Shown: piece by piece, positions 194 to 17,668 of the stretch | How positions within the stretch are numbered: the stretch's first letter is position 1 | Layout: the number at the start of each line of letters is the position of its first letter | Origin: a virus | Lineage: Duplodnaviria > Caudoviricetes | Virus record (IMG/VR): IMGVR_UViG_3300012940_001080 | Span: 1 to 27,240 of that record | Length of the DNA: 27,240 bases | Reading direction: 5' to 3' (one strand) | Notes under the pieces: generated by a model | The model's database searches: none | Told to the model about the DNA's origin: nothing | Seen by the model: only the letters and a program-made list of their open reading frames with translations | Position numbers and translations under genes: made by a program

Positions 194-1153
194 ATGGCAC
201 ATAGTCACGCTCACGGGAACGCCGTTGATGCCGGGTGGTGGCGCATCGGGGTCGCTCTGCTCCTCAACGTCGGCATCGTCGTCGCACAGGTGATCGGCGG
301 CCTCCTCTCGGGGAGCCTTGCCCTCCTTGCCGATGCCGTCCACAACGGGAGCGACGCGGCTTCGCTCGGCGTCAGCTTCGCCGCGCGGAAGATCGCAGGG
401 TGGGATCCAGACCAGCGGCGGACCTTCGGGTACGCGCGGGTGGAAACCGTGGCCGCCGTCATTAACCTGACCACCCTCATCGTGATCGGGCTCTACCTGC
501 TGGTCGAAGGCATCGGGAAGCTCTTCAGTCCCGAGCCGGTGGAGGGCACGACGATGCTGGTGGTGAGTGCCATCGCGTTCGTGGAGGACCTGCTCTCCGT
601 CCTCGTCCTCTACCCGCTCACGAAGGGGAGCCTCAACGTCCGGAGCGCGACGCTCCACCTCGTCGTCGACACGCTCTCTACGGTCGCCGTGCTGGGCGGG
701 GCTGCTGCGGTGATGCTGTTCGACTTCTACCTCGTTGATCCCCTCCTCACCGTGCTTATCTCTCTCTTCATCCTCTACCACGGGGCAAAGGAGCTGCGGA
801 GCGCGGCGAGTGTGCTCATCGAGAGCGCACCGAGAGGCTTCGACCTCGACGGCGCCGTCGCCGCGGTCGAGGCGGTGCCGGGTGTTCAGGAGATCCACCA
901 CGTTCACGTCTGGCAAATAGATGAGAACCGAGTCGGCGTGGAGGCGCACCTCGTGATGGACCGCTCCGACCTGGGCGAAATGGAACGGGTGAAAGGCGAG
1001 GCTAAGCGTGTGCTCCACGACCGGTTCGGGGTGGAGCACACGACGCTTGAGGTCGAGATCGACGCCTGCGTGGAGCACGAGCGGTCCGTCATCCCTAAGC
1101 ACGAGGCCGGGTCCTCCGCGCACCACGATCATGGCGCAGGGCACGACAAATGA
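194..1153 (+). CDS. czcD: Cation diffusion facilitator (CDF) family Zn/Co/Cd transporter, CzcD/ZitB-like
   Basis: 319 aa. Contains the signatures SGSLALLADAVHNGSD, RRTFGYARVETVAAVIN, LNVRSATLHLVVD and IHHVHVWQI...EAHL...GVEHTTLEVE, with His-rich termini. RBS GAGGT precedes the ATG. Confidence 0.93.
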   Translation: MAHSHAHGNAVDAGWWRIGVALLLNVGIVVAQVIGGLLSGSLALLADAVHNGSDAASLGVSFAARKIAGWDPDQRRTFGYARVETVAAVINLTTLIVIGLYLLVEGIGKLFSPEPVEGTTMLVVSAIAFVEDLLSVLVLYPLTKGSLNVRSATLHLVVDTLSTVAVLGGAAAVMLFDFYLVDPLLTVLISLFILYHGAKELRSAASVLIESAPRGFDLDGAVAAVEAVPGVQEIHHVHVWQIDENRVGVEAHLVMDRSDLGEMERVKGEAKRVLHDRFGVEHTTLEVEIDACVEHERSVIPKHEAGSSAHHDHGAGHDK

Positions 1154-1170
1154 TCAACGGGAGATAGGTG

Positions 1171-1320
1171 CAGCTCGGCCTCGCTGCCGGCGGAGAGCCC
1201 GTCCGGGTCGTGCTCGTGGTAGCTGATCGCATGGTTATCGACTTCGTCGCCTATGTGGATGACGTCGGAGCACCCGAACCGCTCCTGTACGCGCAGGCAG
1301 AAGTCGAGGTAGCCGGGGTG
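1171..1320 (-). pseudogene. 50-codon internal fragment of a phage-type calcineurin-like metallophosphoesterase
   Basis: Translates to HPGYLDFCLRVQERFGCSDVIHIGDEVDNHAISYHEHDPDGLSAGSEAEL, with the VxHIGDxxD metallophosphoesterase motif II. The N-terminal DxH and downstream GNH motifs are absent. The flanking residues of ORF 1129..1407 derive from the repeat array and from czcD antisense sequence. Confidence 0.7.
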
Positions 1321-1509
1321 GGAGAGATCCGGGACGTAGGTGCGAAGGATTCGGGACCTGAGCGCGAGGGATTCAGGGCCGAAGCGCGCGGGATTCGGGA
1401 CGGCCATGTGAGAGAACCGGGAGCTGGGTGGGAAGGAATCGAGACCGAAGTGGGAGGGATTCGGGACGGAAGTGGGAGGGATTCAGGGTCGAAGGCGCGG
1501 ATTGAGGGT
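1316..1509 (+). repeat. Left arm of an iteron-like array: 8 (+1 degenerate) 20-bp repeats at a 22-bp period
   Basis: Units start at 1316, 1338, 1360, 1382, 1404, 1426, 1448 and 1470, with a degenerate copy near 1490. Consensus is approximately AAGTGGGAGGGATTCGGGAC. Confidence 0.9.
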
Positions 1510-1514
1510 GAAAT

Positions 1515-1544
1515 CACATGCCATGCACATGCCATGCACATGCC
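1515..1544. repeat. 11-bp tandem repeat (CACATGCCATG)x2.7 at the centre of the array
   Basis: CACATGCCATG at 1515-1525 and 1526-1536, and CACATGCC at 1537-1544. Five CATG sites. Followed by the palindrome ATATGC-A-GCATAT at 1564-1576. Confidence 0.9.
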
Positions 1545-1579
1545 TATTGCGCCTTTAGCCCTCATATGCAGCATATTTG

Positions 1580-1727
1580 GTCCCGAATCCCTCCCACTTG
1601 GACCCCTGTGCACCCTGAATCCCTCCCACTTAGAGAGCTCAACTTCCCGAATCTGTCCCACTTGGCGAGCTCAGCTTCCCGAATCCTTCCCACCCCGACC
1701 ACTCTCCGTACTGAATCCTTCCCACCC
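1580..1727 (-). repeat. Right arm of the iteron-like array: 5 inverted 20-bp repeats at a 32-bp period
   Basis: Units at 1580, 1612, 1644, 1676 and 1708, separated by 12-bp variable spacers. 1580-1599 is the exact reverse complement of 1448-1467, and 1612-1631 is the exact reverse complement of 1470-1489. Confidence 0.9.
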
Positions 1728-1782
1728 TTCGATGGGCAGTTCCCGGTCTATAAGAGCGATGCCTTCACCATCAGCCTGAACG

Positions 1783-2337
1783 TCAACCGGATGTGGGCTC
1801 GTCCGGAGGGTTTTCGCCAACGCGACGATCACCTACGCGAAGATCGCCTTCGTGATCGAGGAGCTCGTCGGGCAGCCCGGCCTTGTCCGTGATGAGCTTT
1901 CTCAGCGCAGCCGCGATGCGCCGCCCGGCCGGGGTGCCGCCGATAGTGTTCTCGCAGATTGACCCCCACTCTGTGAGGGCCACCAGCACGTACGCGAGCT
2001 CATCGAGGTACGTGAAACCTTCGGAGACGAGGGGGATTTCGCCCGCGGAGACGACGTTCGCTAAGGCCGTGGTGAGTCCCAGGAAGGCGGCATACTCGAT
2101 GGCCTTGATGAACGAGCGCCTCCGCTTGCGGCTCGTGATGGGCTCGCCCCGCCGCCTGGCTGCGATCGTGCCGGTGATGAAGTCGGCCAGAACGAGGAGC
2201 GAGATGAGTGCTACGAGGTCGATGTTAACTGAGAAGAGCCGGGAGAGTAGCTCGAGCGCAAAGGTGAGCGCCAGGCTTGCCCAGGCCTTCCACTGGAGGC
2301 CCTCGGCTATACCTTGCAGCGGAGCGAGGTAGTTCAA
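1783..2337 (-). CDS. Phage holin (holin 4_1/TcdE-like family)
   Basis: 184 aa with several hydrophobic segments and family motifs LVLADFITGTIAA..RGEPITS.K and E.GSICEN. Located after the tail genes. The TTG start is uncertain. Confidence 0.8.
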   Translation of the reverse strand: MNYLAPLQGIAEGLQWKAWASLALTFALELLSRLFSVNIDLVALISLLVLADFITGTIAARRRGEPITSRKRRRSFIKAIEYAAFLGLTTALANVVSAGEIPLVSEGFTYLDELAYVLVALTEWGSICENTIGGTPAGRRIAAALRKLITDKAGLPDELLDHEGDLRVGDRRVGENPPDEPTSG

Positions 2338-2483: not shown

Positions 2484-5400
2484 CTAATGATCACTTGCAA
2501 ACCTGTGAATGTGGCCGTTGGGGAATCGGGCGCAGAGCCACATGCTTCCGGCCGAGTTCTTGTACACGTAGATGCGCACCGTGTCCGAGAGCGGCGTTGC
2601 GATGTCGCCCGCCGAGGTAGACGTGGCGCCCTGTATGTCTACGTAGCCCATGAGCGTGCTGCTGCTGCGAGGCACGAGCACGCTGCGCGGCGTCTGCAGG
2701 CCGTTGCCGAATATCGCTACACTGTTGCCGGCCGCTGCCTGAAGGATCAAGGTGCTGTTCAGGGAGCTGTAGATGTAGGCGCCGTCCGACCATCGAACCT
2801 GCGAGGTAGTCGTGTTTCCGTTGTTGAGCCTGACTCCGCTGTTGTTGATCACGACGGCGCCGCTGCCTCCGGTGATCTGCCCGCCCGCGATGTTCAGGTT
2901 GCCCGTGATGTTCATGGTGCCCGTGATCGAGCCGCTTGTGGCGGTGACCGCGCCCCTGAACTCGCCGTGCGTCGCGTAGAGGTAGCCATCTGCCCGCACG
3001 TAGAAGCGCCAGCCCGAGCCTCCTATCGGGTCGCTGCCGGGGCCGTTGAAGTGGACCGCGAAGACAGGCGTGGCGGCGCCTCCAGGCGCCGTGACGTAGG
3101 CCGAGTAGTTGCTGGCGGTTTTGCGCAGGTCGGCGTTGGTGATCTGCCAGCCGGCGAGCTCGCCGCCCTGCTTGGCGGTGAGTGTCGTCGCGGTGATGTT
3201 GCCCTGAATCGTTGCGTCTGTGGCCGTGAGGTGGCCCGTCTGCGTCACGCGGAAGGGCGCGCTTGCGGCAGTGGCGTTGCCCACCCAGAGCCGGTAGGTC
3301 CCGTCCGTCCCGCTCATGCGGACGACGTTGTTGCCCGTGCCGGCCGTGATGTCGTTGAGCGCATTCACGGTGGCGCCGGTGATCGTCGGGCTCTCGATCG
3401 TGGTCTGGGTGATCTTCGTGCTCTGGAGGTAGGACGGGTTCTTCTGCGCACCGGCCTCGATCCCGCCGAGCTTGCTAGCGGCCGTGGCGTCGAGCTGGGA
3501 GAGGTTCGTTGGGCGCCCGGAGACCTGAGTCCACGAGAGCGTCACGCTGGAGCCGAACGTCACCGATCCGGACGTATTCCAACTAATGTTGCCACTGGCC
3601 AAGCGCCCGGAGCCGTCAGCGTTGAGCTGGAACTGCGCACTGCCTTTAGTGCCGCTCCACATTGCGGTATTGTCGAAGCTGATCCCGCCGATGTGGCTCG
3701 TCGTGGAGAGCTTGAAATACTCATTGCCGTTTATGACGCCTTTGAGGCCCCAATCGGACGAGCTGGTGTAGTCCATCTGCACGTAGCTCGTCGTGTTGTG
3801 ACCTGCCAGCTTGACGATGGGGAGGCTCCCGTTGTTAAAGTTGCCGACGAGCACCTTCCCAGTCTGCGTCTCCCCGGAGAGGTTGTCCCCTACGATCGTG
3901 TGCCCGTTCGCGCCGAAGTAGCCGCGCGAGACCGCGATGACGCCTTCGAGAAAGACATTGGTCGAGTAGAGACCATTGCCTCCGACCGTCCGCCCGGCGA
4001 CCGTCTTGCCGATGCCATTCAAGTTTCCAAGACGGGCCAGTACCGCGTACGCGTCGGGGGCAAAGTCCCCGTCCGTATCGCTCCACGTCTGGTATTGCGT
4101 ATACGGCGATCCTGCCGCGTCGAGAACGGTCGAGTAGATCATGCCGCTACCCGGCGTGCCGTAGTCGTAGGCAACGGCTCCCCGGTGAATCACCTTCCCC
4201 TGAACGCCGGGCCCGAGCTTTCGGGTAGTCCACGTCCAGCTCTGAGTGCCATTTCCGCTGTTGACGTAGGAGGCGACCGTTCCCCATGCGTCGGCCACGA
4301 TCAGGCCGCCGCCCTCCCGGCTGATGTAGCGGAGTCGGATCGTGTCCCCGTCCTCGAAGACGGGCGTCGCGCCAAGCTCTTCCAGATCCTCGACAACGAG
4401 GGCGGCCGTCGCCCCCACCGCCGGGACGGTGAAGCTCTCGGCCAGCGTTGCCCGACTCTTGCTGAGGATCTCCGATCCCACGAGGAGTTGCGCTACGTCG
4501 GCCGAAAACGCCTGCGTCTGGATCTCGTCCGAATAAAGGCTCCGGACATCGGCGTGCCCCGTGGTGAAGTTGAACTGTGCCCCGGCGGTCCGGGAGACGT
4601 AGCCGTTCGATTCGAGGGTCCCCCCGTCCACGAAGATTGAGCCGTAGCCGGACACTTCCCCGTTCTGGTAGTTGGCCGTCTCGAGCCGCATGGTGTGCGC
4701 CCGAAGGCGGAACTGGCCTGGCTCCGAGTTGCCGGAGCGCGGGCCGAGCACGATTTCTCCGCCGTCGGGAGCCTCCACCCAAAGCCGGTTGTTCGCCGGT
4801 CCAGCCCCGGCGGAGTCCACGTAGAGGGCATAGCCGTGGTTGAACTGGAACACTTTCGAGGAGGCACCAGCGGGCGGCTGGAAGTTCCACGTCCCCGTGA
4901 CGGTCCACGCCCCGGAGATGGATTCCGCGACGTTGGTCCGGGCGAAGGGCTGGAACGTGGACCCAGCCCGGCGCTGGCCCCAGCGCAAGAGCCCCTGGTC
5001 GAACTCGAGGAACTCATTGTCGAGGTCGCCCTGGTTGATCTCGATGCCGGCGTTCTGGCTTGGGGTGCCCGTCCAGTCCGAGTTAAGCAGAACGAAGTTG
5101 TCACTGAGCGCGACCTTCTCGCCTTCGATGATCGTCGCGTCGCCCGCAACGACGAGCTTCTGTACTACGAGCGTGCCGTGGTTCGTGCCGTCCGGCGCGA
5201 AGACGTGCATCTCGTTTTCGACGCCGCGGAAGATGCCGCCGCCTGCGATCCCGAGGTCGCCCGCGATCGTACCGCCCGTGAGCTTCAGGTAGCGGTCGTC
5301 GTGGTTGTGCTGGGCTCCTGCAAAGTTACTCGGCACGAAAAGCTCGCCACGGATCCAGAGGTTCTCGAACGCTCCGTCTCCCGCCTTCGTGATGGCGGCT

Positions 5401-7457
5401 CCAGTTGTGCCCGGGTTCGTGATACGGTACGTCGCCTCGTCGAAAGCTCCGTTCCAGTTCGTCGTCTCGAAGACCTTGCCGTCCCAGTGTATGCCCTCCA
5501 GGTTGAGCGTCAGGCTTGTGACGGTGTCGCCTTCTTTCACTGCGAACTCAATCTCGCTCTTGTGCGGCACCTCTTCGCCACGAGGCACCGTGGGAGCCTC
5601 GACGAAACGCGAGACGGCGCTGGGCGCGCGCCGCTCCAGGCGCACTTCCTTCCGTATGCGACCGAACTCCTTATCCTCCGTCTCGCGTACGGCGACGACG
5701 CGGCCTTCGAAGTCGATCTCCCATGCCCCGTTACGGTATCGATCACGCACGCGCACCGTATCCCCGAGCATGACTTCGGTCCCCGACTCCTCGAGGTGGC
5801 TCACATCGAAGAACTCGCCTTCATAGCTCACAGGAGCCGTTCCTCCGGCCTCGACGAGCCGCCTGGCGCCCTCGCGGAAGAGGCAGCGCGGTCCCATCAT
5901 GGGGGAGTAGGGGGCGGCCGTGTGGGCCTGCACGAGCGTTAGTGAGTCGATGACGAACTCGGTGCCGTTCTCGAGCGCCGTGATGCGGATACGGGCGTTC
6001 CCCGCGGCCGGCTCGAAGCCGGAGACGCTGATCTCTCGGTAGGTATCACCTCCATAGCTGATCGTCTGTGTGGGCGGATGGAGCTTACCTGCCGAGTCGA
6101 CAAGCTGGGCGGTGATGCGGCCCGAGAGGACGCGCACGTTGAGCCAGAACGAGAAGTAGGGCTTCTCCGTGGTGGGGGCGAGCGGTATATCGATCGTCTC
6201 GACTCCGCCGCCTTTGGCGGCTTGCACGCGAAGGCTCTTCTTGCCGTGGATGACGTAGATCGCCTCCGTCTCGAAGAGGGCCGTGGCGGGGCCGAACACG
6301 GACATGCCGTCGGGAAGAGTAGTCCCTTCTGACATGTCGGCGGAGCCGCCCATCTGCTCGAACAGGTTCGTGTCTGGGCTTACCTCGGAGAGTTCGAGCA
6401 TCACCTCCACGGTCCCGTTTGCACCGGGCACCTCGAGCACCGTCAGGTCGTTACCGGCCGCGTCGAAGAAGCGCACCATCTGGCCGCTGAGGCCCCGTGC
6501 ATCGCCCGCGACGACGACCGTGCGCTCCGATGTCGTTGAGGTGATCGTGTACTTAGCTCCCGGTCTGCCGATCTTCAGGCCCACCAGGAAGCCGCTCTGA
6601 ATGATCGGGTAAGGCGTAAGTCCGAGAGTGAGCGTTGTTTTCCCGTTCGAATAAGAGGCGGAATCGACACTCCAGCTGGCCTGCGCGATGGTAGTGGGAA
6701 ACTCGGGATCGCCGCAGACGGGAAGGACGCGGTTGAAATAGTCGGCGGCCTCGTCGGTGACGCGCAGGTCTACGCGGTTCGCAGCGCTAGGAGCCTCGTA
6801 GGCCGTTGGTGCCTCGATCACTCGGGCGCCCGCCACGGAGGATCCGACCCGCTCGACAAGGTCCACGCGGTAGACACTGCCGTCCCAGCGGGTCGTCCAC
6901 TCGCACCCCAGCCGCTCAGTGATCTGGCGCAGCACGTCGAGGTGGGTGATACCGATGCCCTGCACGACTGGCTTCTCGCTCGAGTAGGCGGCAGCTACCG
7001 TACCAGCTTGGAAGAGGGCAGGGCAGCCATATGTCGCCGAGAGAACCTGAGAGAGCACTTCCTGCGCCGTCATGCCGGTAAAGACGACATTGATCTCGAC
7101 CGTACTGTCCGGACGGGACCGGCGCACCTTGTAGTCGGCCAGGTCGGTCCATATGGGCCACGCAACGATCGTCGTCGGCTGCGTACCGGCGGTCGAGATC
7201 TGCACCTCGCGCACGCGCCACTCTTCGAAGGTCGCGTCGTCGTAGGTGCAGCGGAGCTTGCAGCGACTCTTCAGCAGGACGTCCCACTGCGTGCCGGGGT
7301 GCAGGAGCAGCGTGAGTTCGTCCGGCTCGCCGAGCGTGCGTTCTATTTCCGGGTATTCGAAAGCGCAGGAGAGGAGGTCGGCGCTCCCGTCCACCATGAG
7401 GGGCGCATCGCCACCGGTGGCCGGGTATACCTTTATAGTCTGGATTCGCCTGGGCAT
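2484..7457 (-). CDS. Large tail tip protein: Tal/baseplate-hub-like N-terminus fused to a central fibre/receptor-binding region
   Basis: 1657 aa immediately downstream of the tape measure gene. The N-terminus resembles prophage tail (endopeptidase-like) hub proteins. There is a jelly-roll/CBM-like segment (GKKSLRV...FVIDSLTL), an HNHDDRY fibre motif and G/T/N-rich beta repeats in the C-terminal half. Confidence 0.8.
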   Translation of the reverse strand: MPRRIQTIKVYPATGGDAPLMVDGSADLLSCAFEYPEIERTLGEPDELTLLLHPGTQWDVLLKSRCKLRCTYDDATFEEWRVREVQISTAGTQPTTIVAWPIWTDLADYKVRRSRPDSTVEINVVFTGMTAQEVLSQVLSATYGCPALFQAGTVAAAYSSEKPVVQGIGITHLDVLRQITERLGCEWTTRWDGSVYRVDLVERVGSSVAGARVIEAPTAYEAPSAANRVDLRVTDEAADYFNRVLPVCGDPEFPTTIAQASWSVDSASYSNGKTTLTLGLTPYPIIQSGFLVGLKIGRPGAKYTITSTTSERTVVVAGDARGLSGQMVRFFDAAGNDLTVLEVPGANGTVEVMLELSEVSPDTNLFEQMGGSADMSEGTTLPDGMSVFGPATALFETEAIYVIHGKKSLRVQAAKGGGVETIDIPLAPTTEKPYFSFWLNVRVLSGRITAQLVDSAGKLHPPTQTISYGGDTYREISVSGFEPAAGNARIRITALENGTEFVIDSLTLVQAHTAAPYSPMMGPRCLFREGARRLVEAGGTAPVSYEGEFFDVSHLEESGTEVMLGDTVRVRDRYRNGAWEIDFEGRVVAVRETEDKEFGRIRKEVRLERRAPSAVSRFVEAPTVPRGEEVPHKSEIEFAVKEGDTVTSLTLNLEGIHWDGKVFETTNWNGAFDEATYRITNPGTTGAAITKAGDGAFENLWIRGELFVPSNFAGAQHNHDDRYLKLTGGTIAGDLGIAGGGIFRGVENEMHVFAPDGTNHGTLVVQKLVVAGDATIIEGEKVALSDNFVLLNSDWTGTPSQNAGIEINQGDLDNEFLEFDQGLLRWGQRRAGSTFQPFARTNVAESISGAWTVTGTWNFQPPAGASSKVFQFNHGYALYVDSAGAGPANNRLWVEAPDGGEIVLGPRSGNSEPGQFRLRAHTMRLETANYQNGEVSGYGSIFVDGGTLESNGYVSRTAGAQFNFTTGHADVRSLYSDEIQTQAFSADVAQLLVGSEILSKSRATLAESFTVPAVGATAALVVEDLEELGATPVFEDGDTIRLRYISREGGGLIVADAWGTVASYVNSGNGTQSWTWTTRKLGPGVQGKVIHRGAVAYDYGTPGSGMIYSTVLDAAGSPYTQYQTWSDTDGDFAPDAYAVLARLGNLNGIGKTVAGRTVGGNGLYSTNVFLEGVIAVSRGYFGANGHTIVGDNLSGETQTGKVLVGNFNNGSLPIVKLAGHNTTSYVQMDYTSSSDWGLKGVINGNEYFKLSTTSHIGGISFDNTAMWSGTKGSAQFQLNADGSGRLASGNISWNTSGSVTFGSSVTLSWTQVSGRPTNLSQLDATAASKLGGIEAGAQKNPSYLQSTKITQTTIESPTITGATVNALNDITAGTGNNVVRMSGTDGTYRLWVGNATAASAPFRVTQTGHLTATDATIQGNITATTLTAKQGGELAGWQITNADLRKTASNYSAYVTAPGGAATPVFAVHFNGPGSDPIGGSGWRFYVRADGYLYATHGEFRGAVTATSGSITGTMNITGNLNIAGGQITGGSGAVVINNSGVRLNNGNTTTSQVRWSDGAYIYSSLNSTLILQAAAGNSVAIFGNGLQTPRSVLVPRSSSTLMGYVDIQGATSTSAGDIATPLSDTVRIYVYKNSAGSMWLCARFPNGHIHRFASDH

Positions 7458-7562
7458 GGGCAGGTGGGCCTATACAAAGAGTGAGGGGACGCTCCGGATG
7501 GTGGCCGTCTTCCTTCATTGTCCAAGTGTGCCCGGATGGGAGGTCCGTCCTTACCTGCCCGC

Positions 7563-10500
7563 CTATTTCCGTCCGAACTGCCTGTTGAGATGCTTGCGGA
7601 TCTCCTTCTCGAGCAGGACGGCGAGGCCGGGGATGTCGCGCTCACTACCGACGCTGAGGCTGCCAACTGTCACGTTCACCGAAGTGGAGAGGGCTTTTGC
7701 CGGAGCCTGGAGGACCTTCAGGTGAGGCACCATGGGCGCTATTGCCATCTGGGGCACTTTCGCCAGTGTGCTATCGCCAATGCCTCGTGTGGCCATGATG
7801 CGCGTCCAGTGGGCTATCTCCTTCAGCACGGTGATCATCTCATCGCCCTGCGCGTCGGTGATCTGGCGAAGCTGCCCAATGCTCGTCGTCCAGCCGTCGT
7901 CGAGCCCTGCGGAGGAAGCGTCCTGCTCGGCCTGGATGAAGGAGTCGAGGATGCGCTCGATCTCCTCGGGGGAGAGCTTGCCGAGGTAGGTCTGCAGGTC
8001 AGCTGCGATCGTCTTGCGGAGCTCTTCGACACGCCTGCGCCCGGCCTCCGTCGTGAGATCGAGCCCCATCGCTTCAACGAGAAGCGGTCTCAGGTCTTCG
8101 TCGATTCCCTCGACTGAGAGCAGCGATTTGATGAACTTGCGGAAAGCTTCCGGCGTCTCTTCGCCCAGGTACTTCGTCAAGAACTCGAACGAGGTCGCCG
8201 CGCCTGCCACGGTCTTCGAGTACTCACCCTGGCGGTTGATGAGCTCCTCCAGAGCAGCATCGAGGTTGCCGAAGCGCTCACCGAAGAGTTCGCGCACGGC
8301 GCGGTTGACGAGCTGCTCGGCAGAGATCTTACCCCTTCCGAGTTCTCGCACGTTATTTTTGATGATCGTGTTGAGGAGGGTGCGAAACGTCTCGGAGATG
8401 CCGGAGAACAGGGAGATGCCGCTGTCCTCGAGTCTCTGCACGAGCTCCGTCGCGGCGTCGATCGAGTTGCCGCCGCGCTGGAGGCTGCGGAGGACCTGCT
8501 GCGCTTCGAGGAGCGTGCCGCGCTGGAGGCTCGATCCGAGCTGTGGGGCCTTGAACGTCTCCTCGACAGCGCGCCGGATCTCACGGGCGCTCTCTCGGAG
8601 GGCAGCCTGGAGGCGCTTCATCTCCTCCCGTTCGGCCTTCGAGGCGCTCAGGAGGCCACCGATGACAGAGCCCAGGCCGGCGGCGACGCCGACGAAGCCC
8701 GGTAGCTGGGCGAGGATGCCTTTTGTCGAGGAGAGGCTCGTTTCATCCTCCTTCAGACGCTTCCTCGTCTCGATGAGGTCGGCCATGCTCGCGCCGGCAT
8801 CCAGAAGGCCCGTCGCCACGTCAGCAGCGGCGTCGGAGACCTTGCCCAGCGACCGCGCAAGCCCCAGGAGGCTACGCCCGGCGCCCACCAGGCTGCGGAC
8901 GCTCTCGGCCGAGTCCTTGAGTTGCTTCGGCAGGTCGTCACCCCTTCTCGCGCCTCCGATCTGGCCGGCCATCTCCTGTATGAGCGTCTGCAGGTGGTCG
9001 CGCAGTGCTCCCGGAAGCGACTCGAGATCGATCTCCTCAAGGAACTCGACGAGCTGGATGCGGAACGTCTCGGCCGCAGCGGCTGCCATCGTCTTCGAGG
9101 TCTCCTCGTCAATCAGGCTCAGGTCGGTGTTCTTACGGATGTCGGCGAGCGTCGTCTCCAGCTGCCGCATGTACGTCTGCATCTGCTGCGCGCTGGGCAG
9201 GAACGCCTTCAGGGCCTCCTCCGAGACGCCCTGCTCGAATAGTTCGTCGATGCCCCCTAGCTCGTCGATGAGCTTTCTGGCCGCTTCGGGCAGCTCCTTG
9301 TAAAGCTCGAGGTTTCTGTAGGACTGGTTGTAGTTCTCCGTGAGGTAGTCCTTCTCGGCACCCAGCAGCTGGATCAGCTCTTCGTAATCTTTGATACGAG
9401 GGTCGGACGGGCTCACCTTGCGTAGCTGCGCCACGTCCTTCTGCGCGTTCTCGATCTGCTCCTCGATGCGGTGGATCTCGCCGAGCTTACCGCGCAGTTC
9501 GTCGTAGGCGTCGAGCAGTTCCATGGCCCGTGCGAGTTCTTCGACGGTCATGATCGTGCGCTCGTCTTCGCTGCCACCCGCCGTTACAGAGGGCAGTGAT
9601 CCTCCGCCGGAGCCCTCGGACGGAGGGGCGAGCAGCTTGTTTATGCGCTCGATCTCGGCCCTAACCCGTTTGAGTCTCGCCTCTTCCTCGGCCGTGCGGC
9701 CTACGATACCGCTAAGCTGCTCCTCTACGGCCGTGAGGTAGGCAAGCTGGGTATGGTAGTTCTTGTTCATGTCGGAGTGGAGCTCGTCCTCGGCCCTGCT
9801 TGCTTCCGCGAAGATGGAATGCAGTTCGATGAAGGCGGCGATCTGCTTGCGGATTTCCGGTGTCAGGTCACCCGCGGAGAGCCCGTAGCGGCGCAGTCGT
9901 GCCACGTTCGCCGTCCCCGAGGGGTCGAGCGTGGGGTTGCCTCCGGCGTTCTGCACAGTCTGGAGATTCTGGGTCATCAAGTCGCCCAGGCCCTCCAGCG
10001 TGCCGTCGGCAATTGCCTTGTTGATCGCGTAGCGCACCTTCTCCGGCAGGCCGCCCAGCATCTTGTCGACGTCGGCCTGAAGCTCGGATACCTTGATCGT
10101 AAGCTCGAACAGTCTCTGGCCTTTCATACGGGCGTCGAGCACGTCGATATCGTCAAGGAGGTTCTTGATCTCCTTCCGGTGCTCGCGGATCTTCCGGCTC
10201 GTCTCGCCCAAGAGTTTGCCGAAGAGGTCGAACCTCGCGCTGAGAGCGACGAGTGCCGTGACAACGGCGGCGATGATGCCCGGCCATCCCCCCAGTATGG
10301 CGCTCAAGCTGCGGAACGCCTGTCCCGCCACACTTTTCACGTAGACCCCGGCTTTCTTGATGTGAAGGCCCATGCGCGCAAAGGCCCCGCTCGCCTTCTC
10401 CGCCCGACTGCCCATGAGGGCGATCACGCGGGCTCGCTCCTCGATTTGACGCCGTGTCGCGTCCGGGAACGCTTTCAAGATCTCGGCTCCGCTAAGGACA

Positions 10501-11732
10501 GTAAAGTGTTTGGCGTAGGGGTTGAGGCTCGTACCGCCGCCCGAAGATGGCTTGGGAGGCTGGTGTGTCGTGTAGAGAGGCGCGGCTCTGCCCAGCATGA
10601 CAGCCTGGGCGCGCCTGCCTGCCAGGTGCAGTGCTTCCGCGTACTTGAGCACGCCGTCCGTTAGCTCTTTGACGTTCCGGATGGCGAACTGGAGCCCCTT
10701 GAAGATGAGGAACGAGGTGCCAAGCCTGAGCAGTTCAGGGGTTAGTGGGGCGATGACCTTCGCGATGTCGACGAGCACCCGGTAGATGTCGCGCAGGACC
10801 ATCCCGGTCTCGCGCAGCGAGCGGGTCAGGCTGCCGCTCGAGTCGGCCGCATCGAGACTATCTGCGAGGCTCTGAAGGTCGCGGCCGAACTCGGCGAACG
10901 TAGGTCCGCCTACCTGGGTGAGCGCCTTGCGGAAGACCTCGGCGAAGCGGTTAGCGAGCCCCTCAGCGCTGCGGGAGTAATCCCGCAGCAGCGTCGGATA
11001 CTCCTTACGGATCGCATCCAGGAGCGCGGGGACGACCGCGTCAGCGGCCAGCTTACCCTCTTCGGTGAGCTTGCGAAGCTCGCCCGTGCTCTTGCCTAGC
11101 TCCTGGCTCAGGAGCCGCCACGCCGGAAGGCCGGCTTCCGATAGCTGGTTCATCTCTTCGGCAGCAAGACGGCCGTTGCCGGCGATCTGGCCGAGCGCCC
11201 GTCCGATGCGGTTGAATCCCTGCTGCATACCGTCGGGCGAGAGGATCGCTGCCGAGCTTATCGCCTCGAGATTCTCGAGCACGGTCTCCAGTTCTAGGCC
11301 GAAGGACGTCATCGTCTGCACGCCCTGAGCGAGCGGAGAGAAGGCCAGGCCCTTGCTCTGGGCAAACTTCTGGATCTGAGAGAGCACGCGGTCGGCTTCC
11401 CAGGCGCTGCCCGTGAGCGACGTGAACCGGACGCGCAGCTGCTCCATCTCGTTGTTGACGCCGACGAGGGCCGTGCCGAAGCGCCGGATGGTCTCGGCCG
11501 CGAAGACGGCGCCGACGAGGCGGCGCAGGGAGGTCATCGAGCGCTCGATGCGGCGGCCCGAGCGGTCCCAGGCGCGCTCCGCTTCGCGGGCTCCTTTCTT
11601 GAACGAGTCGCCGCTCTTCTTTCCGGCGTCCTTGAGGACCTTGTCGGCCTCGCGGGCCTGCTTCTCGACCGCCTTCAGGCTCTGGAGGGCCTTGCGGACG
11701 TCGATGTCGTACGTGGATTCGTATCGCGCCAT
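7563..11732 (-). CDS. Tail tape measure protein
   Basis: 1389 aa, helical and Ala/Leu-rich. Tape-measure N-terminal signature ALGQIAGNGRLAAEEMNQLSEAGLPAWRLLSQELGKSTGELRKLTEEGKL. Follows the tail tube and chaperone genes. Confidence 0.93.
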   Translation of the reverse strand: MARYESTYDIDVRKALQSLKAVEKQAREADKVLKDAGKKSGDSFKKGAREAERAWDRSGRRIERSMTSLRRLVGAVFAAETIRRFGTALVGVNNEMEQLRVRFTSLTGSAWEADRVLSQIQKFAQSKGLAFSPLAQGVQTMTSFGLELETVLENLEAISSAAILSPDGMQQGFNRIGRALGQIAGNGRLAAEEMNQLSEAGLPAWRLLSQELGKSTGELRKLTEEGKLAADAVVPALLDAIRKEYPTLLRDYSRSAEGLANRFAEVFRKALTQVGGPTFAEFGRDLQSLADSLDAADSSGSLTRSLRETGMVLRDIYRVLVDIAKVIAPLTPELLRLGTSFLIFKGLQFAIRNVKELTDGVLKYAEALHLAGRRAQAVMLGRAAPLYTTHQPPKPSSGGGTSLNPYAKHFTVLSGAEILKAFPDATRRQIEERARVIALMGSRAEKASGAFARMGLHIKKAGVYVKSVAGQAFRSLSAILGGWPGIIAAVVTALVALSARFDLFGKLLGETSRKIREHRKEIKNLLDDIDVLDARMKGQRLFELTIKVSELQADVDKMLGGLPEKVRYAINKAIADGTLEGLGDLMTQNLQTVQNAGGNPTLDPSGTANVARLRRYGLSAGDLTPEIRKQIAAFIELHSIFAEASRAEDELHSDMNKNYHTQLAYLTAVEEQLSGIVGRTAEEEARLKRVRAEIERINKLLAPPSEGSGGGSLPSVTAGGSEDERTIMTVEELARAMELLDAYDELRGKLGEIHRIEEQIENAQKDVAQLRKVSPSDPRIKDYEELIQLLGAEKDYLTENYNQSYRNLELYKELPEAARKLIDELGGIDELFEQGVSEEALKAFLPSAQQMQTYMRQLETTLADIRKNTDLSLIDEETSKTMAAAAAETFRIQLVEFLEEIDLESLPGALRDHLQTLIQEMAGQIGGARRGDDLPKQLKDSAESVRSLVGAGRSLLGLARSLGKVSDAAADVATGLLDAGASMADLIETRKRLKEDETSLSSTKGILAQLPGFVGVAAGLGSVIGGLLSASKAEREEMKRLQAALRESAREIRRAVEETFKAPQLGSSLQRGTLLEAQQVLRSLQRGGNSIDAATELVQRLEDSGISLFSGISETFRTLLNTIIKNNVRELGRGKISAEQLVNRAVRELFGERFGNLDAALEELINRQGEYSKTVAGAATSFEFLTKYLGEETPEAFRKFIKSLLSVEGIDEDLRPLLVEAMGLDLTTEAGRRRVEELRKTIAADLQTYLGKLSPEEIERILDSFIQAEQDASSAGLDDGWTTSIGQLRQITDAQGDEMITVLKEIAHWTRIMATRGIGDSTLAKVPQMAIAPMVPHLKVLQAPAKALSTSVNVTVGSLSVGSERDIPGLAVLLEKEIRKHLNRQFGRK

Positions 11733-11744
11733 CTGGTGGGGTGC

Positions 11745-12449
11745 CTATGGGGTTGTGGTCTTCATCATGCCGCGCAGGGTCTCCCAGGCCTTGCGCTGCT
11801 CGGCCTCCTTCACTCGCTTGGGCTTCTCGGTGAAGTAGCCTGTGCGCTTGTGGAGCACGGCGAAAGCCTTCTCGCGCTCGGAGTCCTTCTCGATGTAGGG
11901 AAGCCCCTTGGCGGTGATGTAGGAGAGCTCCCAGCGCGCCCGGAGCGCGTCGCACGTCGAGGCCATGAGCGTGAAGAAGGGCCAGGGGAGGGCAAGTACG
12001 GCTTCCGGTGTGAGGGAGAGGTGGTAAGCCACCTCGGCAATGTGGACGTGCCACGGGGTCTTGCGGAACTGCTCGAGCGCCTCTTCCGCCGTTAGGTGTT
12101 CTTCTTCAGTATCCAAGTCCCGGCCGTTCGGAGCGGGCGAGGCTTTCAGCTTCTCGCCTTTTGCTGAGCCCAGCGCGGCGATGTTCGTCAGGATGGTGAC
12201 GGCATGTGCAGGGGGGACACTCTCGCGCCAGAACATCCAGCGCGGTGGGAAGAGTTCGAGGTAGACCGCTCGGCAGAGCCACTTCCTTGCGACGCTGCGG
12301 ATGTCCTGAAAGGCTGCCTCGTCTCCCGAAGCGGCGTCATGAGAGAGATCGATGATGGTGAGCGCTTCCTCTACCGTCGGAGGGCGCATGCGGTAGATCT
12401 TACCCCGGACGGGAACTGCGATAGCGGCTCGGGCGCGCAGGAGATCCAT
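11745..12449 (-). CDS. Probable tail assembly chaperone
   Basis: Lies between the tail tube and tape measure genes. RGKIYRMRPPTVEE is typical of gpG-like chaperones, and the C-terminal LTPEAVLALPWPFF resembles gpT-like segments. The ATG at 12449 is preferred because the TTG at 12470 overlaps the terminator. Confidence 0.65.
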   Translation of the reverse strand: MDLLRARAAIAVPVRGKIYRMRPPTVEEALTIIDLSHDAASGDEAAFQDIRSVARKWLCRAVYLELFPPRWMFWRESVPPAHAVTILTNIAALGSAKGEKLKASPAPNGRDLDTEEEHLTAEEALEQFRKTPWHVHIAEVAYHLSLTPEAVLALPWPFFTLMASTCDALRARWELSYITAKGLPYIEKDSEREKAFAVLHKRTGYFTEKPKRVKEAEQRKAWETLRGMMKTTTP

Positions 12450-12463
12450 TGAAACTGCCCATA

Positions 12464-12500
12464 GCAACAAAGGCCAGCCAGAGAGTACCGGCTGGCCCTT
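12464..12500 (-). terminator. Probable intrinsic terminator/attenuator after the tail tube gene
   Basis: Minus strand reads GGCCAGCCGG-TACTCT-CTGGCTGGCC (stem with one G-U pair) followed by TTTGTTG. Confidence 0.6.
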
Positions 12501-12544
12501 GAGGCTTTAGTCCAGGTAGTGTTGCTACGTCGCCGAGGGTGGCT

Positions 12545-13162
12545 TTAGAGTGATGCTGCCAGGTCGGGCAGGCTCCACGTCAGGCCGAGGGCCTTCGGGC
12601 TGCCCATGAAGGCCACGCGGAACTCGACAGGGATGTCTTCGCCGGCCTGGTCCTTGGCGCGCCGTGCGCCGCGGAACTCGACCGTGTAGGAGTTAGCGTT
12701 GTCGGCGACACGACCAAAGACGATGTCGCCCAACGAAGAGGGCGCGACAGCCGGGAGCCAGATGCCGTACTGGCTGTCGACGCCCGCAGCGTAGTCGAAG
12801 TCGGGGATGATGCAAAGCGAGGGAAGCTCGACTGGCGTGAACGCCCCGCCGAAGCCGAAGGCCTTGCTGGTCGGCTCCGTGTCGCTGGTCTCCTCTTTGC
12901 CGCCGAGCACGAGCTCCTTGATCTTCTCGACCTGTATCTCGTAGAGCTCCGCCGTGACCGTCGCGGCGGCCGGGAGGGCATATACCGCATCCGCTATGAG
13001 GCCATCGCCGGTGAAGGCGTCGGAGAGTCCCATCAGGCTGATTCCGGGGTTAAACGTGACGGACTCCATCGAGCCCAGGTGAACCATGCCCGCTCCTGCG
13101 GCCTGTGTGGGGTCGCCGATGAGGATGTGCGCGGCGCCGAGTGCTACTGATTTTGCTGCCAT
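12545..13162 (-). CDS. Major tail (tube) protein
   Basis: 205 aa, acidic and beta-rich. Sits after the tail terminator gene and before the chaperone and tape measure genes. Followed by a terminator; AATAGGA lies upstream. Confidence 0.75.
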   Translation of the reverse strand: MAAKSVALGAAHILIGDPTQAAGAGMVHLGSMESVTFNPGISLMGLSDAFTGDGLIADAVYALPAAATVTAELYEIQVEKIKELVLGGKEETSDTEPTSKAFGFGGAFTPVELPSLCIIPDFDYAAGVDSQYGIWLPAVAPSSLGDIVFGRVADNANSYTVEFRGARRAKDQAGEDIPVEFRVAFMGSPKALGLTWSLPDLAASL

Positions 13163-13268
13163 GTGCTGTTGTATCCTATTGAGTTGGACCTGTATGGCGA
13201 TCTCATATCGCCTGTCGGTCTGGGGCGACCCGGATTACGGCGCCGCCTTGTAGTGGGAGGTGTGAGGG

Positions 13269-13691
13269 TTAATTATGAAGGGCAACGAGGTACGTGGCTG
13301 TGCTGGAGAAGCTGTTGGTCTTCTCGTCGTAGTATGGGGCCGAAGGCCTTGTCTGCCTGTCGATGTCGAGGTAGGCCGACCCGTGTTCGGACGAGGGGCG
13401 GAGCGCCTCCAGCACTCCGCGGAGCCGCTCGTGGGCAGCCTCCAGCAGCAGATTGGGGTCTCCGTAGCCGCAGCACTGGATCATCGCCTGAACCGGCACG
13501 AGCGTGACGCCGTGGGGCATCTCGCGCAGTGGCGTCTCAAGCTGCCGGATGACAAGGCGCGACCACCGGGTCTTGGCTGGCGGCGCGGGCAGGCGGTGCT
13601 CGTACGCCCCGTCCGTGATCTGCGCCGTTAGCACCTCGTCGGCTGCGGCAGCTTCCTTCATCGCTCTTATGATGGGGTAGATGCGCGCCAT
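13269..13691 (-). CDS. Tail terminator/completion protein (gp17/DUF3168-like)
   Basis: 140 aa, immediately upstream of the tail tube gene. The pattern IIRAMKEAAAADEVLTAQI..GAYEHRLP fits tail terminators. Confidence 0.65.
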   Translation of the reverse strand: MARIYPIIRAMKEAAAADEVLTAQITDGAYEHRLPAPPAKTRWSRLVIRQLETPLREMPHGVTLVPVQAMIQCCGYGDPNLLLEAAHERLRGVLEALRPSSEHGSAYLDIDRQTRPSAPYYDEKTNSFSSTATYLVALHN

Positions 13692-13694
13692 CTA

Positions 13695-14027
13695 CTACCT
13701 GTCCATGGCCTTCTGGATCATGTCGTGGATGAATCCGCCGTCGAAGGAGGGCATAACCGAGCGCCCTTCCATCTCCTGCACGTAAGAGGCGTGTTCAGCT
13801 GTGTTGATCTCCCTGAGGCGTACCTTGCCGCCCCAGGCGGTGATCTTGATCTCGAATGACTCGTGGAGTTCGTCTGAGCGGTCTTCCCAGCTCTGGTGCG
13901 GGTGGGCCTGGTCGAAACGTACGGCCTCTTGGCCCGCCTCCTCGAGGGCTTCCTGTACGAACTGTCTGGGGTTCATCTCCCTCCGCAGGTCGCGGACGAA
14001 CCGGGCTATGTTGGACCTGGTCGCCAT
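13695..14027 (-). CDS. HK97 gp10-like tail completion/neck protein
   Basis: WEDRSDELHESF and NTAEHASYVQ resemble the DRTG.LR.S and YA.YVE motifs of the gp10 family. Canonical position. ATG at 14027. Confidence 0.65.
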   Translation of the reverse strand: MATRSNIARFVRDLRREMNPRQFVQEALEEAGQEAVRFDQAHPHQSWEDRSDELHESFEIKITAWGGKVRLREINTAEHASYVQEMEGRSVMPSFDGGFIHDMIQKAMDR

Positions 14028-14045
14028 GTGGACGGGTAACACGAC

Positions 14046-14360
14046 CTATTCCTTTGGGACCCTGCGGGGACGAACGTAGGCCCGGGCTTCCTCGACCTCC
14101 GGCAGGTCATCTCCGTTGTTCCACTCGACACGCCAGGTCCACCAGCCAGGCTGGTCGAAGATGATCCGGTAGCTGACCTCACCACTTCCGTGAGTGATCT
14201 GCTCCGCGGAAGACGTGGTGCCGCTGGGCTTCTTCACTGTGATAGTGACATGCCACGGCTCGACGGTGGCCGGCTCGCCCGTCTTTGTCGTGATGGACGC
14301 GGTGAACGTCCTACCGTCGCCTTCGTCGATTCCCTCTGCCGGGGTGATGTCGGTAACCAT
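14046..14360 (-). CDS. Small Ig-like beta-sandwich virion protein
   Basis: 104 aa, with an Ig-like strand pattern VTITVKKPSG...G.VSY...FDQPGWWTWRVEW. Confidence 0.55.
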   Translation of the reverse strand: MVTDITPAEGIDEGDGRTFTASITTKTGEPATVEPWHVTITVKKPSGTTSSAEQITHGSGEVSYRIIFDQPGWWTWRVEWNNGDDLPEVEEARAYVRPRRVPKE

Positions 14361-14423
14361 GAGCCTGTCCTGTGGTTGGGCTATACAGGGGTCCGTTCGG
14401 AAGAGACGTCCATGCGGACGAGA

Positions 14424-14819
14424 TTACGCCGCCTGAGCGGGCTCCGTCTGAGCGGACTCAGTCCAGGTGTGGGTGGTGATGGTCACGACCTGACCGTCGT
14501 TGATGCTCGTGTTGTCGAGATTGAGGTCGCTCCCGGAGATGCCGACCGTTAAATCGGTCAGGAAGGTCGTGCCGCTGGAGTCCTTGAAGCGGGCGCTTGC
14601 TGCCTCCCCTACTCCTGGTGCGAGGCCGTGAGAGGCCGTTCCGGTGAGGTTGCTCGCCGTGGCCGCCCCATTTGAGACGGTGTAGGCATCGGCACCTATA
14701 GGGATCGAGACGAGGACCGTCGAGCCGTCTTCGTGGAGGAGTTCGAGAGAACCGCCGTTGGCCTGGGCGGCGAAGACCTGCGCCTGCGAGTTGCGGAACG
14801 CGACTGATTTGTTTGCCAT
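14424..14819 (-). CDS. Virion structural protein (probable neck/fibre attachment protein)
   Basis: 131 aa. ASARFKDSSGTTFLTDLTVGISGSDLNLDNTSINDGQVVTIT resembles a recurrent phage structural family found next to fibre genes. Confidence 0.55.
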   Translation of the reverse strand: MANKSVAFRNSQAQVFAAQANGGSLELLHEDGSTVLVSIPIGADAYTVSNGAATASNLTGTASHGLAPGVGEAASARFKDSSGTTFLTDLTVGISGSDLNLDNTSINDGQVVTITTHTWTESAQTEPAQAA

Positions 14820-14836
14820 CTGGGACTATCCCAAGG

Positions 14837-17596
14837 TTATGCGCCTGGTGAAAGCGTGTTCGTTGCGCTGAGTGAGAGGGTGATTTTGTGTGTGGCTCTG
14901 AGCGAGGGTGTGATCACCTCGGGCTTGCGGTAGACCTGGTAGCCTCTGGCCCGCTCCGGCAGGTCGCGTGCCGATCCGGAGCCCAGGATGCGTAGCATGA
15001 TGCTACCTTCCTGATCCGGTGCGGCGTCTATGAGGGCACCGTTAGCGGTGACGTAGAGGCGGCCTGTAGCGTGCGTGTGCACCGGCCTGTCCGCGCTCTC
15101 TGCCCCTCCGGTAATGCCGGTCCGGGCCTCGATCGTTGATTCTGCTTCGTGGTCCGTCTGAGCGCCTGAGCCTGAGAGCGTGACCGACCCAGAGGCTCTC
15201 GTACATTCGGCGTCATCAGCCGTGGATCCCTGGCCCGAGATCGTGTTCGGCAGCGGTGTGATGACCGTTCCGGAGGCCGCGCTCGTCTCCCTGGCGTCCA
15301 GTATGACGCTGCTACCGTAAATGCCGACGGTGCCTGCCGCATCGATGCTCTCCCTCGAATCTGTGAGCGCCCCGGCGCCCGTCAGGAGGAGAGAGCCCAT
15401 AGCGGCCGTGGATTCGGTCCTATCGGAGACGGCACCGGTGCCGGAGAGAACGGTCGGCTGCTCGCCTTCTTCCAGCCATGCGACGACCTCTGCCGCCGTG
15501 CGCCACGCCCCTGCGTTGTAGAGCCAAGCCCGGTCGCTCGCGGAGAGCTTCCGGTTGAACTTAAAGAGCTGGTCGAGCCGCCCGTCGAGCTGGAACTGGT
15601 TCGCTCCGGGGTTCTTCATGCCGATCACGAGGTCCGCCGGGCATACCTCCGTCGGGACCGTGACGGCGAATTGTTCCGTCCCCGCATCGTTGAAGCCGAT
15701 TTCGAGGACGGACGCCTCCCGGTCAAAGCCTACGAACACGGCCTGCCACGAGCCTGCAGGGATCGACCCCGTCGTCGTGAATGACTGCTGTTGGTCTTGC
15801 GTACCAATCTGGACCAGAAGCGCCCCTGTGTTCTGGAAGCGGACGGCGTACTCGAACGTAGTGTTGTCCCACGGCTTGTTGAGGATGTACGGCGCGCTCG
15901 CGAAGGAGTCTGCGTTGATGAGGAAGGCGAACTCCCACGAGCGGTCGCCCGTCCGGGTGAAGGGCCCGTCCGCTGCTACGAGGTGCTGTCGCCCCGTCCC
16001 GTTGAACTCGACGCAGCCGCCAACCTTCCCGCTCGAGTTTGCCGTAGGGTTGTTGACGGCCGAGAACGTCGTGTTGCCCGTAGCGTCCGCCGTGAGTGCC
16101 CCCGGCTCGAACTCAAGGGCGAAGGCGAGTGCGCCTTGATTCACTGCCGGTGGTGATTCCCGCTGATCCAGGAGATACCGGGTGTGGAGGAGCTGGATCT
16201 GCTCCGTTGTGAGCGCCACGCCCTGCCAGATCTCCGCCTGACCGAGCCTGCCCTTGAAACCGTAGCCGTTGGCGCTGCCGTTGATGGCGCCGATCTGGAA
16301 CGGCGCGTCTGATGCCGGCCCGAGGCTTGGCGCCCGGCCCTTCCACGCGACAGTCCCGTTTACCATGAGCTGGTATTCCGCGCCGTCCTGAGCAGTGAGC
16401 ACGAGATCGTACTTCTCTCCCGGCGTGAGGAAGACGCCTGTCGCAAGCACGCCCCCGGCGTCCCAGATCCGGACCTCGGTCGAGTTCTGTTCGAGGTAGA
16501 ACATGAACCGGAAGCCTGCTTCGTCCGGCTCGCCGCCCGGTCCGAGCCTCTTGTTGAAGATGTTCTTGTAGCTGGACGTGTCGGCGCTCGGAACGAGGTC
16601 CATCGCGCGAAGCGTGAACGTCGTGCCGGGATCCCATGTGCCGAGGCTCGCCCCGCTCTTGCCCGTCATGTAGAGGCTCTTGCGGTCGCCCTCGGTCATG
16701 AATGTGGCCCCACCGTAGACTTCCCCGTCGTGGTTTCCCATCTCGTCGGTCACGTCCTCCGCCTCGAACGTGTATCGGGCCGTCGGGTCGGGCGGCTCAG
16801 GGATCGGGGCCGGCTCGATCTCCCAGACGGCTTCGATAGTGCTGGCAAATGCCGCCGCCATGTGCGCCTCGCCCGCCGGGCTGGGGTGCGTGCCGTCGTA
16901 GAGCATCGTCTCCGGGTCGAATCCGGTCACGGGGTCTGCCACGATGACCGGGCTGTGGGCGCTCGAGACAGTGGACGGAAGGCCGTCGATGAGCTGATTG
17001 ATAGCGCCGTGCCGCTGGCTCCATGAGGCGTCACTCCGGGGTGGAATGAGCTTCGAGATGATCACCCGGACGTAGGGGTTGAACGCGCGGGCCGTGTGGA
17101 CGAGACGGACGAGGTTTGTAGCAGCCTGATCGATGAGGGAGCCGTCGCCCGGATCCTGAATGGCGTCGTTCGTCCCGGCGTGGATCAGCAGGATGTCCGG
17201 GATGTTGGCCTCGTCGTAGAGCTTTTGGAGGGCCGTTTCGAACACCGGAAGAAGCTCGTCCGTGCGGTACCCCCAGTACCCCTCGTGATCGGTGTCCCAC
17301 CCGGAGGCTGGATAACTGCCTGCGTGCGGTGCGGTTCTCGTCCCCACGAAGTCGATCTCGTGGTCCGCCGCCGTGAGAAGCTGAGAGAGTGGGTAGCGGT
17401 AGGAGTTGTGCCCGTTCGTGGCCTGCGTGATCGAGTCGCCCAGGCAGAGGAGCTTTGCCTTGATCGAGGCTCCGACCGGCGACTCTTCACCCCTGGTCAG
17501 CACAGCATAACCGTAGGGCTCGTCGCGCGAGTCCGCGGTGTCGCCCGTATGGCTTTCCGGCGCAACTGTTAACGTGTTCTTATCGGTGGGCTCCAT
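14837..17596 (-). CDS. SGNH/GDSL esterase + two LamG-like jelly-roll domains + C-terminal ~21-aa repeat shaft; probable virion fibre
   Basis: 919 aa. All four SGNH blocks are present: LGDSIT, HEGYWG, HAGTND and DGTHP. A Pro-rich linker follows. Two LamG-type ends (FKGRLGQAEIWQGVALTTEQIQLL and LDGRLDQLFKFNRKLSASDRAWLYN). About eight 21-aa repeats at the C-terminus. Confidence 0.85.
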   Translation of the reverse strand: MEPTDKNTLTVAPESHTGDTADSRDEPYGYAVLTRGEESPVGASIKAKLLCLGDSITQATNGHNSYRYPLSQLLTAADHEIDFVGTRTAPHAGSYPASGWDTDHEGYWGYRTDELLPVFETALQKLYDEANIPDILLIHAGTNDAIQDPGDGSLIDQAATNLVRLVHTARAFNPYVRVIISKLIPPRSDASWSQRHGAINQLIDGLPSTVSSAHSPVIVADPVTGFDPETMLYDGTHPSPAGEAHMAAAFASTIEAVWEIEPAPIPEPPDPTARYTFEAEDVTDEMGNHDGEVYGGATFMTEGDRKSLYMTGKSGASLGTWDPGTTFTLRAMDLVPSADTSSYKNIFNKRLGPGGEPDEAGFRFMFYLEQNSTEVRIWDAGGVLATGVFLTPGEKYDLVLTAQDGAEYQLMVNGTVAWKGRAPSLGPASDAPFQIGAINGSANGYGFKGRLGQAEIWQGVALTTEQIQLLHTRYLLDQRESPPAVNQGALAFALEFEPGALTADATGNTTFSAVNNPTANSSGKVGGCVEFNGTGRQHLVAADGPFTRTGDRSWEFAFLINADSFASAPYILNKPWDNTTFEYAVRFQNTGALLVQIGTQDQQQSFTTTGSIPAGSWQAVFVGFDREASVLEIGFNDAGTEQFAVTVPTEVCPADLVIGMKNPGANQFQLDGRLDQLFKFNRKLSASDRAWLYNAGAWRTAAEVVAWLEEGEQPTVLSGTGAVSDRTESTAAMGSLLLTGAGALTDSRESIDAAGTVGIYGSSVILDARETSAASGTVITPLPNTISGQGSTADDAECTRASGSVTLSGSGAQTDHEAESTIEARTGITGGAESADRPVHTHATGRLYVTANGALIDAAPDQEGSIMLRILGSGSARDLPERARGYQVYRKPEVITPSLRATHKITLSLSATNTLSPGA

Positions 17597-17668
17597 GGAG
17601 TGATTCTATGTCAAACGGGTCGGGCAGCCGGGACGTGGCGCGCGTCCAAGACCTCGCCCAGAGAGGCG

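Follow-up and report, generated by a model that had tools for sequence, protein, structure and literature searches.

A Rep3-like iteron array lacking a rep gene beside a phage holin in a probable Rhodothermales element

Near one end of a viral contig, two facing arms of a phased 20-bp repeat lie with a metal-efflux gene on one side and a prophage holin gene on the other, and by their sequence these repeats are very likely Rep3 iterons. The array is best explained, with a probability of about 0.6, as a Rhodothermales Rep3 iteron cluster that has likely been separated from its rep gene and unwinding stretch, and that would bind an initiator without firing. We regard the array as mostly explained. 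The window, the whole stretch of 27,240 nucleotides analyzed here, is an entire record, a linear virus contig about 32% complete by CheckV estimate; other assemblies extend it by about 2.5 kb on the left and about 1.95 kb on the right.

The array and its phage setting

Both arms (Table 1) keep strict register. Left-arm copies start at 1316, 1338, 1360, 1382, 1404, 1426, 1448, and 1470, at steps of exactly 22 bp, and right-arm copies start at 1580, 1612, 1644, 1676, and 1708 on the minus strand, at steps of exactly 32 bp. The initial annotation, made from the letters alone, had described eight copies at 22 bp on one strand and five at 32 bp on the other; both periods were exact, but the slot at 1404 had a leave-one-out score of −1.6 compared to 19.6 to 31.2 for the other 12, leaving seven good copies of eight in the left arm. 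Its observation that two right-arm copies are exact reverse complements of left-arm copies was borne out by two pairs, 1448 to 1467 with 1580 to 1599 and 1470 to 1489 with 1612 to 1631. The distance between the arms had been put at about 70 bp and is larger by our count, a value of 70 arising only if the partial ninth copy is included.

Table 1. Features of the array and its flanks (window positions)
Feature	Position	Strand	Basis
Cation diffusion facilitator (CDF, metal efflux) gene, left flank	194..1153	+	PF01545, PF16916
Phage metallophosphoesterase internal fragment, about 50 codons, cut at both ends	1165..1320	-	phrog_221, E 5e-11
Left arm, 8 iteron-like 20-bp slots, 22-bp period (slot 1404 degenerate)	1316..1489	+	Sequence, motif scores
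Spacer, 90 bp, 51% GC	1490..1579	.	Sequence
Partial ninth copy, register short by two bases	1492..1509	+	Read from sequence
Tandem repeat of 11 bp (2.7 copies) with five CATG sites within 30 bp	1515..1544	.	Sequence
Right arm, 5 iteron-like copies, 32-bp period, facing left arm	1580..1727	-	Sequence, motif scores
Phage holin	1783..2337	-	PF05105, phrog_199
Tailed-phage morphogenesis module (tail, tape measure, capsid, portal, terminases)	2484..23737	-	Synteny with G058 prophage

The array is real and not an assembly artifact. With up to 3 mismatches allowed, the motif matched 12 times, compared to a shuffle mean of 0.05 and a maximum of 1 in 100 shuffles, and a motif-free copy count gave 12 for the array and 2 to 3 in 12 other 2-kb slices and 30 shuffles. 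Single contigs crossed the whole array in three (X2, X3, and X5) of the four metagenome runs compared; X3 and X5 are possibly source runs of this DNA, and X2 is not so marked. In the fourth run (X12), two contigs are interrupted at 1581/1591. None of these four runs has a joint or letter difference listed inside the array. Of 24 listed runs, 20 contain the stretch, whole or in part; most of these are metagenomes from compost and fertilizer, and 10 are marked as possible sources.

Several replicon-level checks proposed with the initial annotation returned little. Outside the array, the 27 kb contain no further occurrence of the motif (best score, 10.6), and the window holds no second array. GC skew does not switch at the array; only the local strand bias of the arms is seen. 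The record is classed as linear, with no joints in run comparisons that used contigs only, and contig depths yielded no copy-number ratio. A search for sigma-70 promoters in positions 1100 to 2500 found none. Clustering of CATG sites, as in the spacer's tandem repeat, was rejected as a general trait of rep-linked arrays (3.3 versus 2.8 per kb).

The host likely belongs to the Rhodothermales, because a syntenic prophage lies in genome G058 and the best match to the CDF gene (63%, among 301 genomes of the class) lies in G022, both of the same order as G001. The G058 prophage is the nearest phage relative found, with identities of 76% for TerL, 66% for capsid, and 57% for portal. It adjoins a tRNA-like sequence and host genes, and it looks integrated; no Rep3 was found in the G058 genome. 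Its contig ends before the holin, and neither the holin nor the tail C terminus was found in G058. In this related prophage (G058:C6, L114 13683 to 16400), an 18-bp coding repeat of 13 copies runs into a 600-amino-acid open reading frame without a Pfam hit. This frame has motifs that resemble those of family A DNA polymerases, and it is a candidate replication gene next to a type I restriction locus and a sequence like tRNA-Leu.

In the window, 55 bp separate the stop codon of the holin gene from the last copy of the right arm. Scans of viral collections, from which near-identical records may be missing, returned no match for the motif, holin, Rep3, capsid, or continuation past the right end, and blastn with positions 1150 to 1800 gave four weak plasmid matches (E 0.2 to 0.6) and one phage match, which was the phosphoesterase. 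The minus strand at 14837 to 17596, between head and tail genes, encodes a 919-amino-acid virion-region protein with a GDSL esterase and two laminin-G domains. A plus-strand frame at 26425 to 27240 has 66- and 84-bp coding-like repeats and runs off the end. Contigs from X2, X3, and X10 depart from the window at 27164 into other sequence, and an X5 contig also continues past 27164; judged from these sequences, positions 27165 to 27240 are probably one more copy of the repeat unit at the end of the contig. At the other end, in the region of positions 1 to 556, the X2 contig that carries bases 1 to 123 has twice the depth, and all four runs compared contain a second CDF paralogue, which together suggest a duplicated metal-efflux region.

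Related repeats at Rep3 genes in Rhodothermales

In length and phasing the array is of the repeat type that accompanies Rep3 genes, phased direct repeats of 17 to 22 bp. The initial suggestion of an iteron replicon gained support from two directions: a Rep3 gene in a Salinivenus genome is preceded by near-identical repeats, and related repeats flank Rep3 genes across the Rhodothermales. A two-copy pattern of the window motif, scanned over 596 Gb of genomes, returned nine loci, of which only one, in a metagenome-assembled genome of Salinivenus (Rhodothermales; L032), had a 22-bp array. Scored with the window matrix, this locus has 11 copies, mostly at 22-bp steps, about 0.9 kb upstream of an open reading frame that matches Rep3_N (E 1e-34) and Rep3_C. 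The best plasmid relatives of its product are Salinibacter ruber initiators, which also have arrays upstream. A TnpB-like fragment (PF07282; 8986 to 9756) lies between iterons and rep gene at this locus. Among 22 metagenome loci, one (L015) was the window's own record, and the other 21 had no 22- or 32-bp array of at least three copies; they consisted of 15-bp coding-like repeats, with a pair 33 bp apart in two of the loci.

A wider comparison started from the protein. The Rhodothermales Rep3 set held 35 loci, some of them redundant (5 plasmid stretches and 30 loci from 26 of 285 genomes), and 6 non-Rhodothermales Rep3 plasmids formed an outgroup; arrays were sought de novo. Arrays of at least five copies were present in 29 of the 35 loci, with runs at 21 to 22 bp and steps of 31 to 33 bp. 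Convergent inverted copies occurred in 9 of the 29, at offsets of 84 to 192 bp, and the offset in the window is 110 bp. Among loci found by protein, the consensus agreed with the window core at 13 of 16 positions in L073, which has three copies only, and at 12 of 16 in each of L071, pSR35, L074, and L092, compared to 7 to 9 of 16 in the six outgroup plasmids. Many Rhodothermales arrays resemble the window motif at chance level only, as would follow if every Rep recognized an iteron of its own.

A family pattern found 9 places in 8 of the 285 genomes, and all 8 are among the 26 Rep3-bearing genomes; 7 places adjoin rep, 2 lie at contig ends, and a reversed-pattern control found none. Because the pattern was built from rep-linked arrays, this enrichment is partly built in, and its informative part is that nothing clearly distant from rep was matched. 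The window array is unusual in this light, since none of the nine places is a certain stand-alone array. The window retains the positions that are invariant across 14 arrays (rho 0.55, P = 0.03). Copy identity within the window array is 0.82, inside the rep-linked range of 0.77 to 0.95, and so gives no clear sign of decay.

The search also turned up unusual arrangements. In the origin array of L068 (844 to 1363, G118:C2), successive 22-bp steps switch strictly between two different iteron variants, and several Rep3 genes lie within a few kilobases on a single contig in L093 (G396:C192) and in L070/L095 (G126:C7). Another Rhodothermales locus (L209 3588 to 11407, G068:C164) combines Rep3, ParA, and a 728-amino-acid ParB-like protein amid small phage-like genes; a terminase match lies on a different contig, and the locus is possibly a fragment of a phage-plasmid or an integrative and conjugative element (ICE).

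Missing origin parts and competing explanations

Origins of this kind are described as iterons with DnaA boxes and an AT-rich unwinding element, generally beside a rep gene (PMC6312765, in part). Since rep and the AT-rich element on this partial list of parts are absent, the array is not a complete origin, although its sequence places it with Rep3 iterons. As first reported, no initiator is visible in the window: neither Pfam nor a custom profile found Rep3 in six frames. A VYKSD stretch after the right arm was rejected as a Rep3 start, falling outside the top 6 of 33,000 to 44,000 windows at four lengths. For AT-rich stretches, 19 of the 29 rep-linked arrays were examined, and 17 had a 40-mer with a GC content of 0.18 to 0.40 starting 76 to 88 bp 5′ of the 22-bp run; the other two, L071 and L090, carried theirs 3′ of the run. 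At the usual 5′ position neither window arm had such a stretch (GC content of 0.50 on the left and 0.475 on the right). An E. coli-type pattern gave no DnaA-box-like match near the array, and likewise none near most rep-linked arrays; a DnaA-box-like word just past the right end was dropped because it more likely lies inside an open reading frame.

On the left, the place where an AT-rich stretch would usually lie is occupied by the phosphoesterase fragment. Homology to phosphoesterases begins at 1320 and thus overlaps the first repeat by 5 bases. The fragment ends after about 50 of 205 to 218 residues and does not include the GDTHxPF motif, which sits just upstream of the fragment's start point in 80 of 80 homologues. 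A deletion at this 5-base overlap may have joined the first repeat to the phosphoesterase interior and removed the unwinding stretch, and rep may have been lost or left behind as recombination stranded the cluster.

On this reading, Rep monomers would bind each repeat along one face of the helix. Where a cognate plasmid is present, the 12 to 13 sites would be predicted to titrate Rep and handcuff the plasmid origin, lowering copy number and producing incompatibility toward the matching plasmid; where it is absent, the array would be a silent relic. Cooperative, phased binding to iterons of 17 to 22 bp, with WH2 contacts to GAG/GTG, is described in PMC4980987, and extra iterons are reported to block initiation via titration and handcuffing (PMC12361487, PMC6312765, and PMC6090056). 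Among the matches listed (at least 120 plus 120; 20 of 150 cluster representatives), no Rep3 protein lay on a contig with the length of the one bearing this element's genes (32,758), and no cognate Rep was identified, a result that does not show absence.

Some observations sit less easily with a stranded fragment. The record is about a third complete and contigs from other assemblies extend it on both sides, so rep may lie elsewhere on the element. The AT-rich stretch of L071 and L090 lies 3′ of the run, where the window has its spacer. Exact phasing argues against simple decay, as does a copy identity inside the rep-linked range. Four consecutive 32-bp steps occur in no rep-linked array; the most in any of them is two.

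A location of rep and origin beyond the sequenced part is the premise of an unlikely alternative, that the array is a copy-control cluster of a phage-plasmid or a prophage-carrying plasmid, like the widely spaced incA iterons of P1 or the incC iterons of F. Its appeal is that about two thirds of the element are missing by the CheckV estimate, that a plasmid could have carried the metal-efflux genes on the left as cargo, and that phasing is exact and copy identity falls in the rep-linked range. P1, itself a prophage, carries iterons on either side of repA (PMC10999674), and some phage-plasmids are reported to have turned into integrated phages (PMC12282955). However, the control iterons of P1 flank rep, and here there is no rep in the nearest 25 kb on the right or 1.3 kb on the left. 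Virion genes are present, with no Rep3, ParA, or ParB in the sequenced 32% or so of the element. The listed matches likewise gave no Rep3 on a matching contig (20 clusters), 80 terminase loci, distant at 47 to 58%, contained none, and the G058 relative looks integrated and has another candidate replication gene.

It is quite unlikely that the prophage or the island flanking it has kept an inward-facing array lacking rep on purpose, as a decoy that evicts a competing Rep3 plasmid by titrating and handcuffing its initiator or as a minimal origin that borrows its Rep. If true, purposeful retention would amount to a weapon or hijack between mobile elements that consists of DNA alone and needs no protein, and an array kept to inhibit or borrow a plasmid initiator would be a simple form of mobile-element conflict. 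If the array is a recent deletion scar, it matters little, and the repeat type itself is ordinary iteron biology. No matching case of a rep-less iteron array in a prophage was found among the open-access papers listed.

More doubtful still is a working origin fired in trans, an idea already raised by the initial annotation, in which the Rep of a coresident plasmid would load both arms and melt the spacer, making the phage or island a plasmid satellite. The weakest 40-mer duplex near the array does lie in the spacer (start 1553, 99th percentile of the window), the best-scoring copies are those closest to it, the 110-bp step falls inside the 84 to 129 bp of seven rep-linked convergent layouts, and L071 and L090 set a precedent for an AT-rich stretch 3′ of the run. 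Against this, the lowest 40-mer GC content of the spacer is 0.45, compared to 0.15 to 0.40 in most rep-linked arrays, the 5′ AT-rich stretch of 17 of the 19 arrays examined is absent here, and DnaA-box-like matches are lacking, as they are near most rep-linked arrays. The spacer was no closer to any rep-linked region than shuffles were; a 14-base likeness to L090 scored 12.5, within the null range of 11.5 to 14.5. Four runs yielded no excision or inversion joints, in contigs that drop rare forms.

Very improbable is a partition centromere or a set of sites for a phage-encoded DNA-binding protein, with iteron likeness arising by convergence. There is no rep nearby and the window encodes small helix-turn-helix proteins (below curated cutoffs), but the same motif stands at Rep3 origins, no ParA or ParB family appeared among the 25 window frames scanned (24 in a second scan), and the sequenced part of the G058 prophage, whose contig ends before the holin, has no comparable array. 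The initial proposal of a partition site thus found no support and no neighboring parA or parB, and support was equally lacking for a new nucleoprotein scaffold. Transposase-binding ends of a transposon remnant, or cruciform action, are extremely unlikely, and the examination of the ends, together with the Rep3 context, largely refutes them: the inverted arms differ in spacing and 1440 to 1640 folds at a z score of −6.6 as a direct consequence of inverted copies, but with unequal periods only two copies can pair, Rfam gave no match, and the TG...CA ends that would have marked a remnant lacked inverted repeats and target duplications (five outer pairs; duplications of 0 to 1 base; at most 9 of 20 positions complementary).

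Comparison with known origins and titration sites

The repeat length and helical phasing are like those of F RepE ori2/incC, the R6K gamma origin, and pPS10, with iterons of 19 to 22 bp, and the G-rich half of the window repeat resembles the GAG/GTG contacted by the WH2 domain (PMC4980987). Unlike the window, the F, R6K, and pPS10 origins have an unwinding element, DnaA boxes, and an adjacent rep. P1 shares two iteron groups on a phage-bearing element, and its iterons set incompatibility, but repA lies between its groups, and no gene lies within the 90 bp that separate those of the window (PMC10999674). The titration sites of Vibrio cholerae chromosome 2 offer another likeness, as iterons distant from the origin that bind the initiator and inhibit initiation; that is an RctB system with sites scattered on the same replicon (PMC6090056), whereas the window has one compact array and no known cognate replicon.

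Set against Rhodothermales Rep3 origins (PF01051 plus PF21205), represented by L032 and by Salinibacter ruber pSR35, pSR47, pSR61, pSR67, and pSR118 with putative iterons read from their sequences, the window differs in several ways: it lacks rep, it has no AT-rich sequence on the 5′ side of the run, its five inverted copies keep a strict 32-bp period, and phage genes flank it. No description of iterons in Salinibacter or Rhodothermus plasmids was found in open-access main texts. The comparison gives a first sketch of Rhodothermales Rep3 origins, consisting of a repeat consensus, rules for the steps, and the fixed spacing of an AT-rich stretch; it could help in designing vectors for use in Salinibacter and Rhodothermus. 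What the window shares with these origins is the motif family, runs at 21 to 22 bp with steps of 31 to 33 bp, inverted copies about 100 bp away, and a copy number within their 5 to 13.
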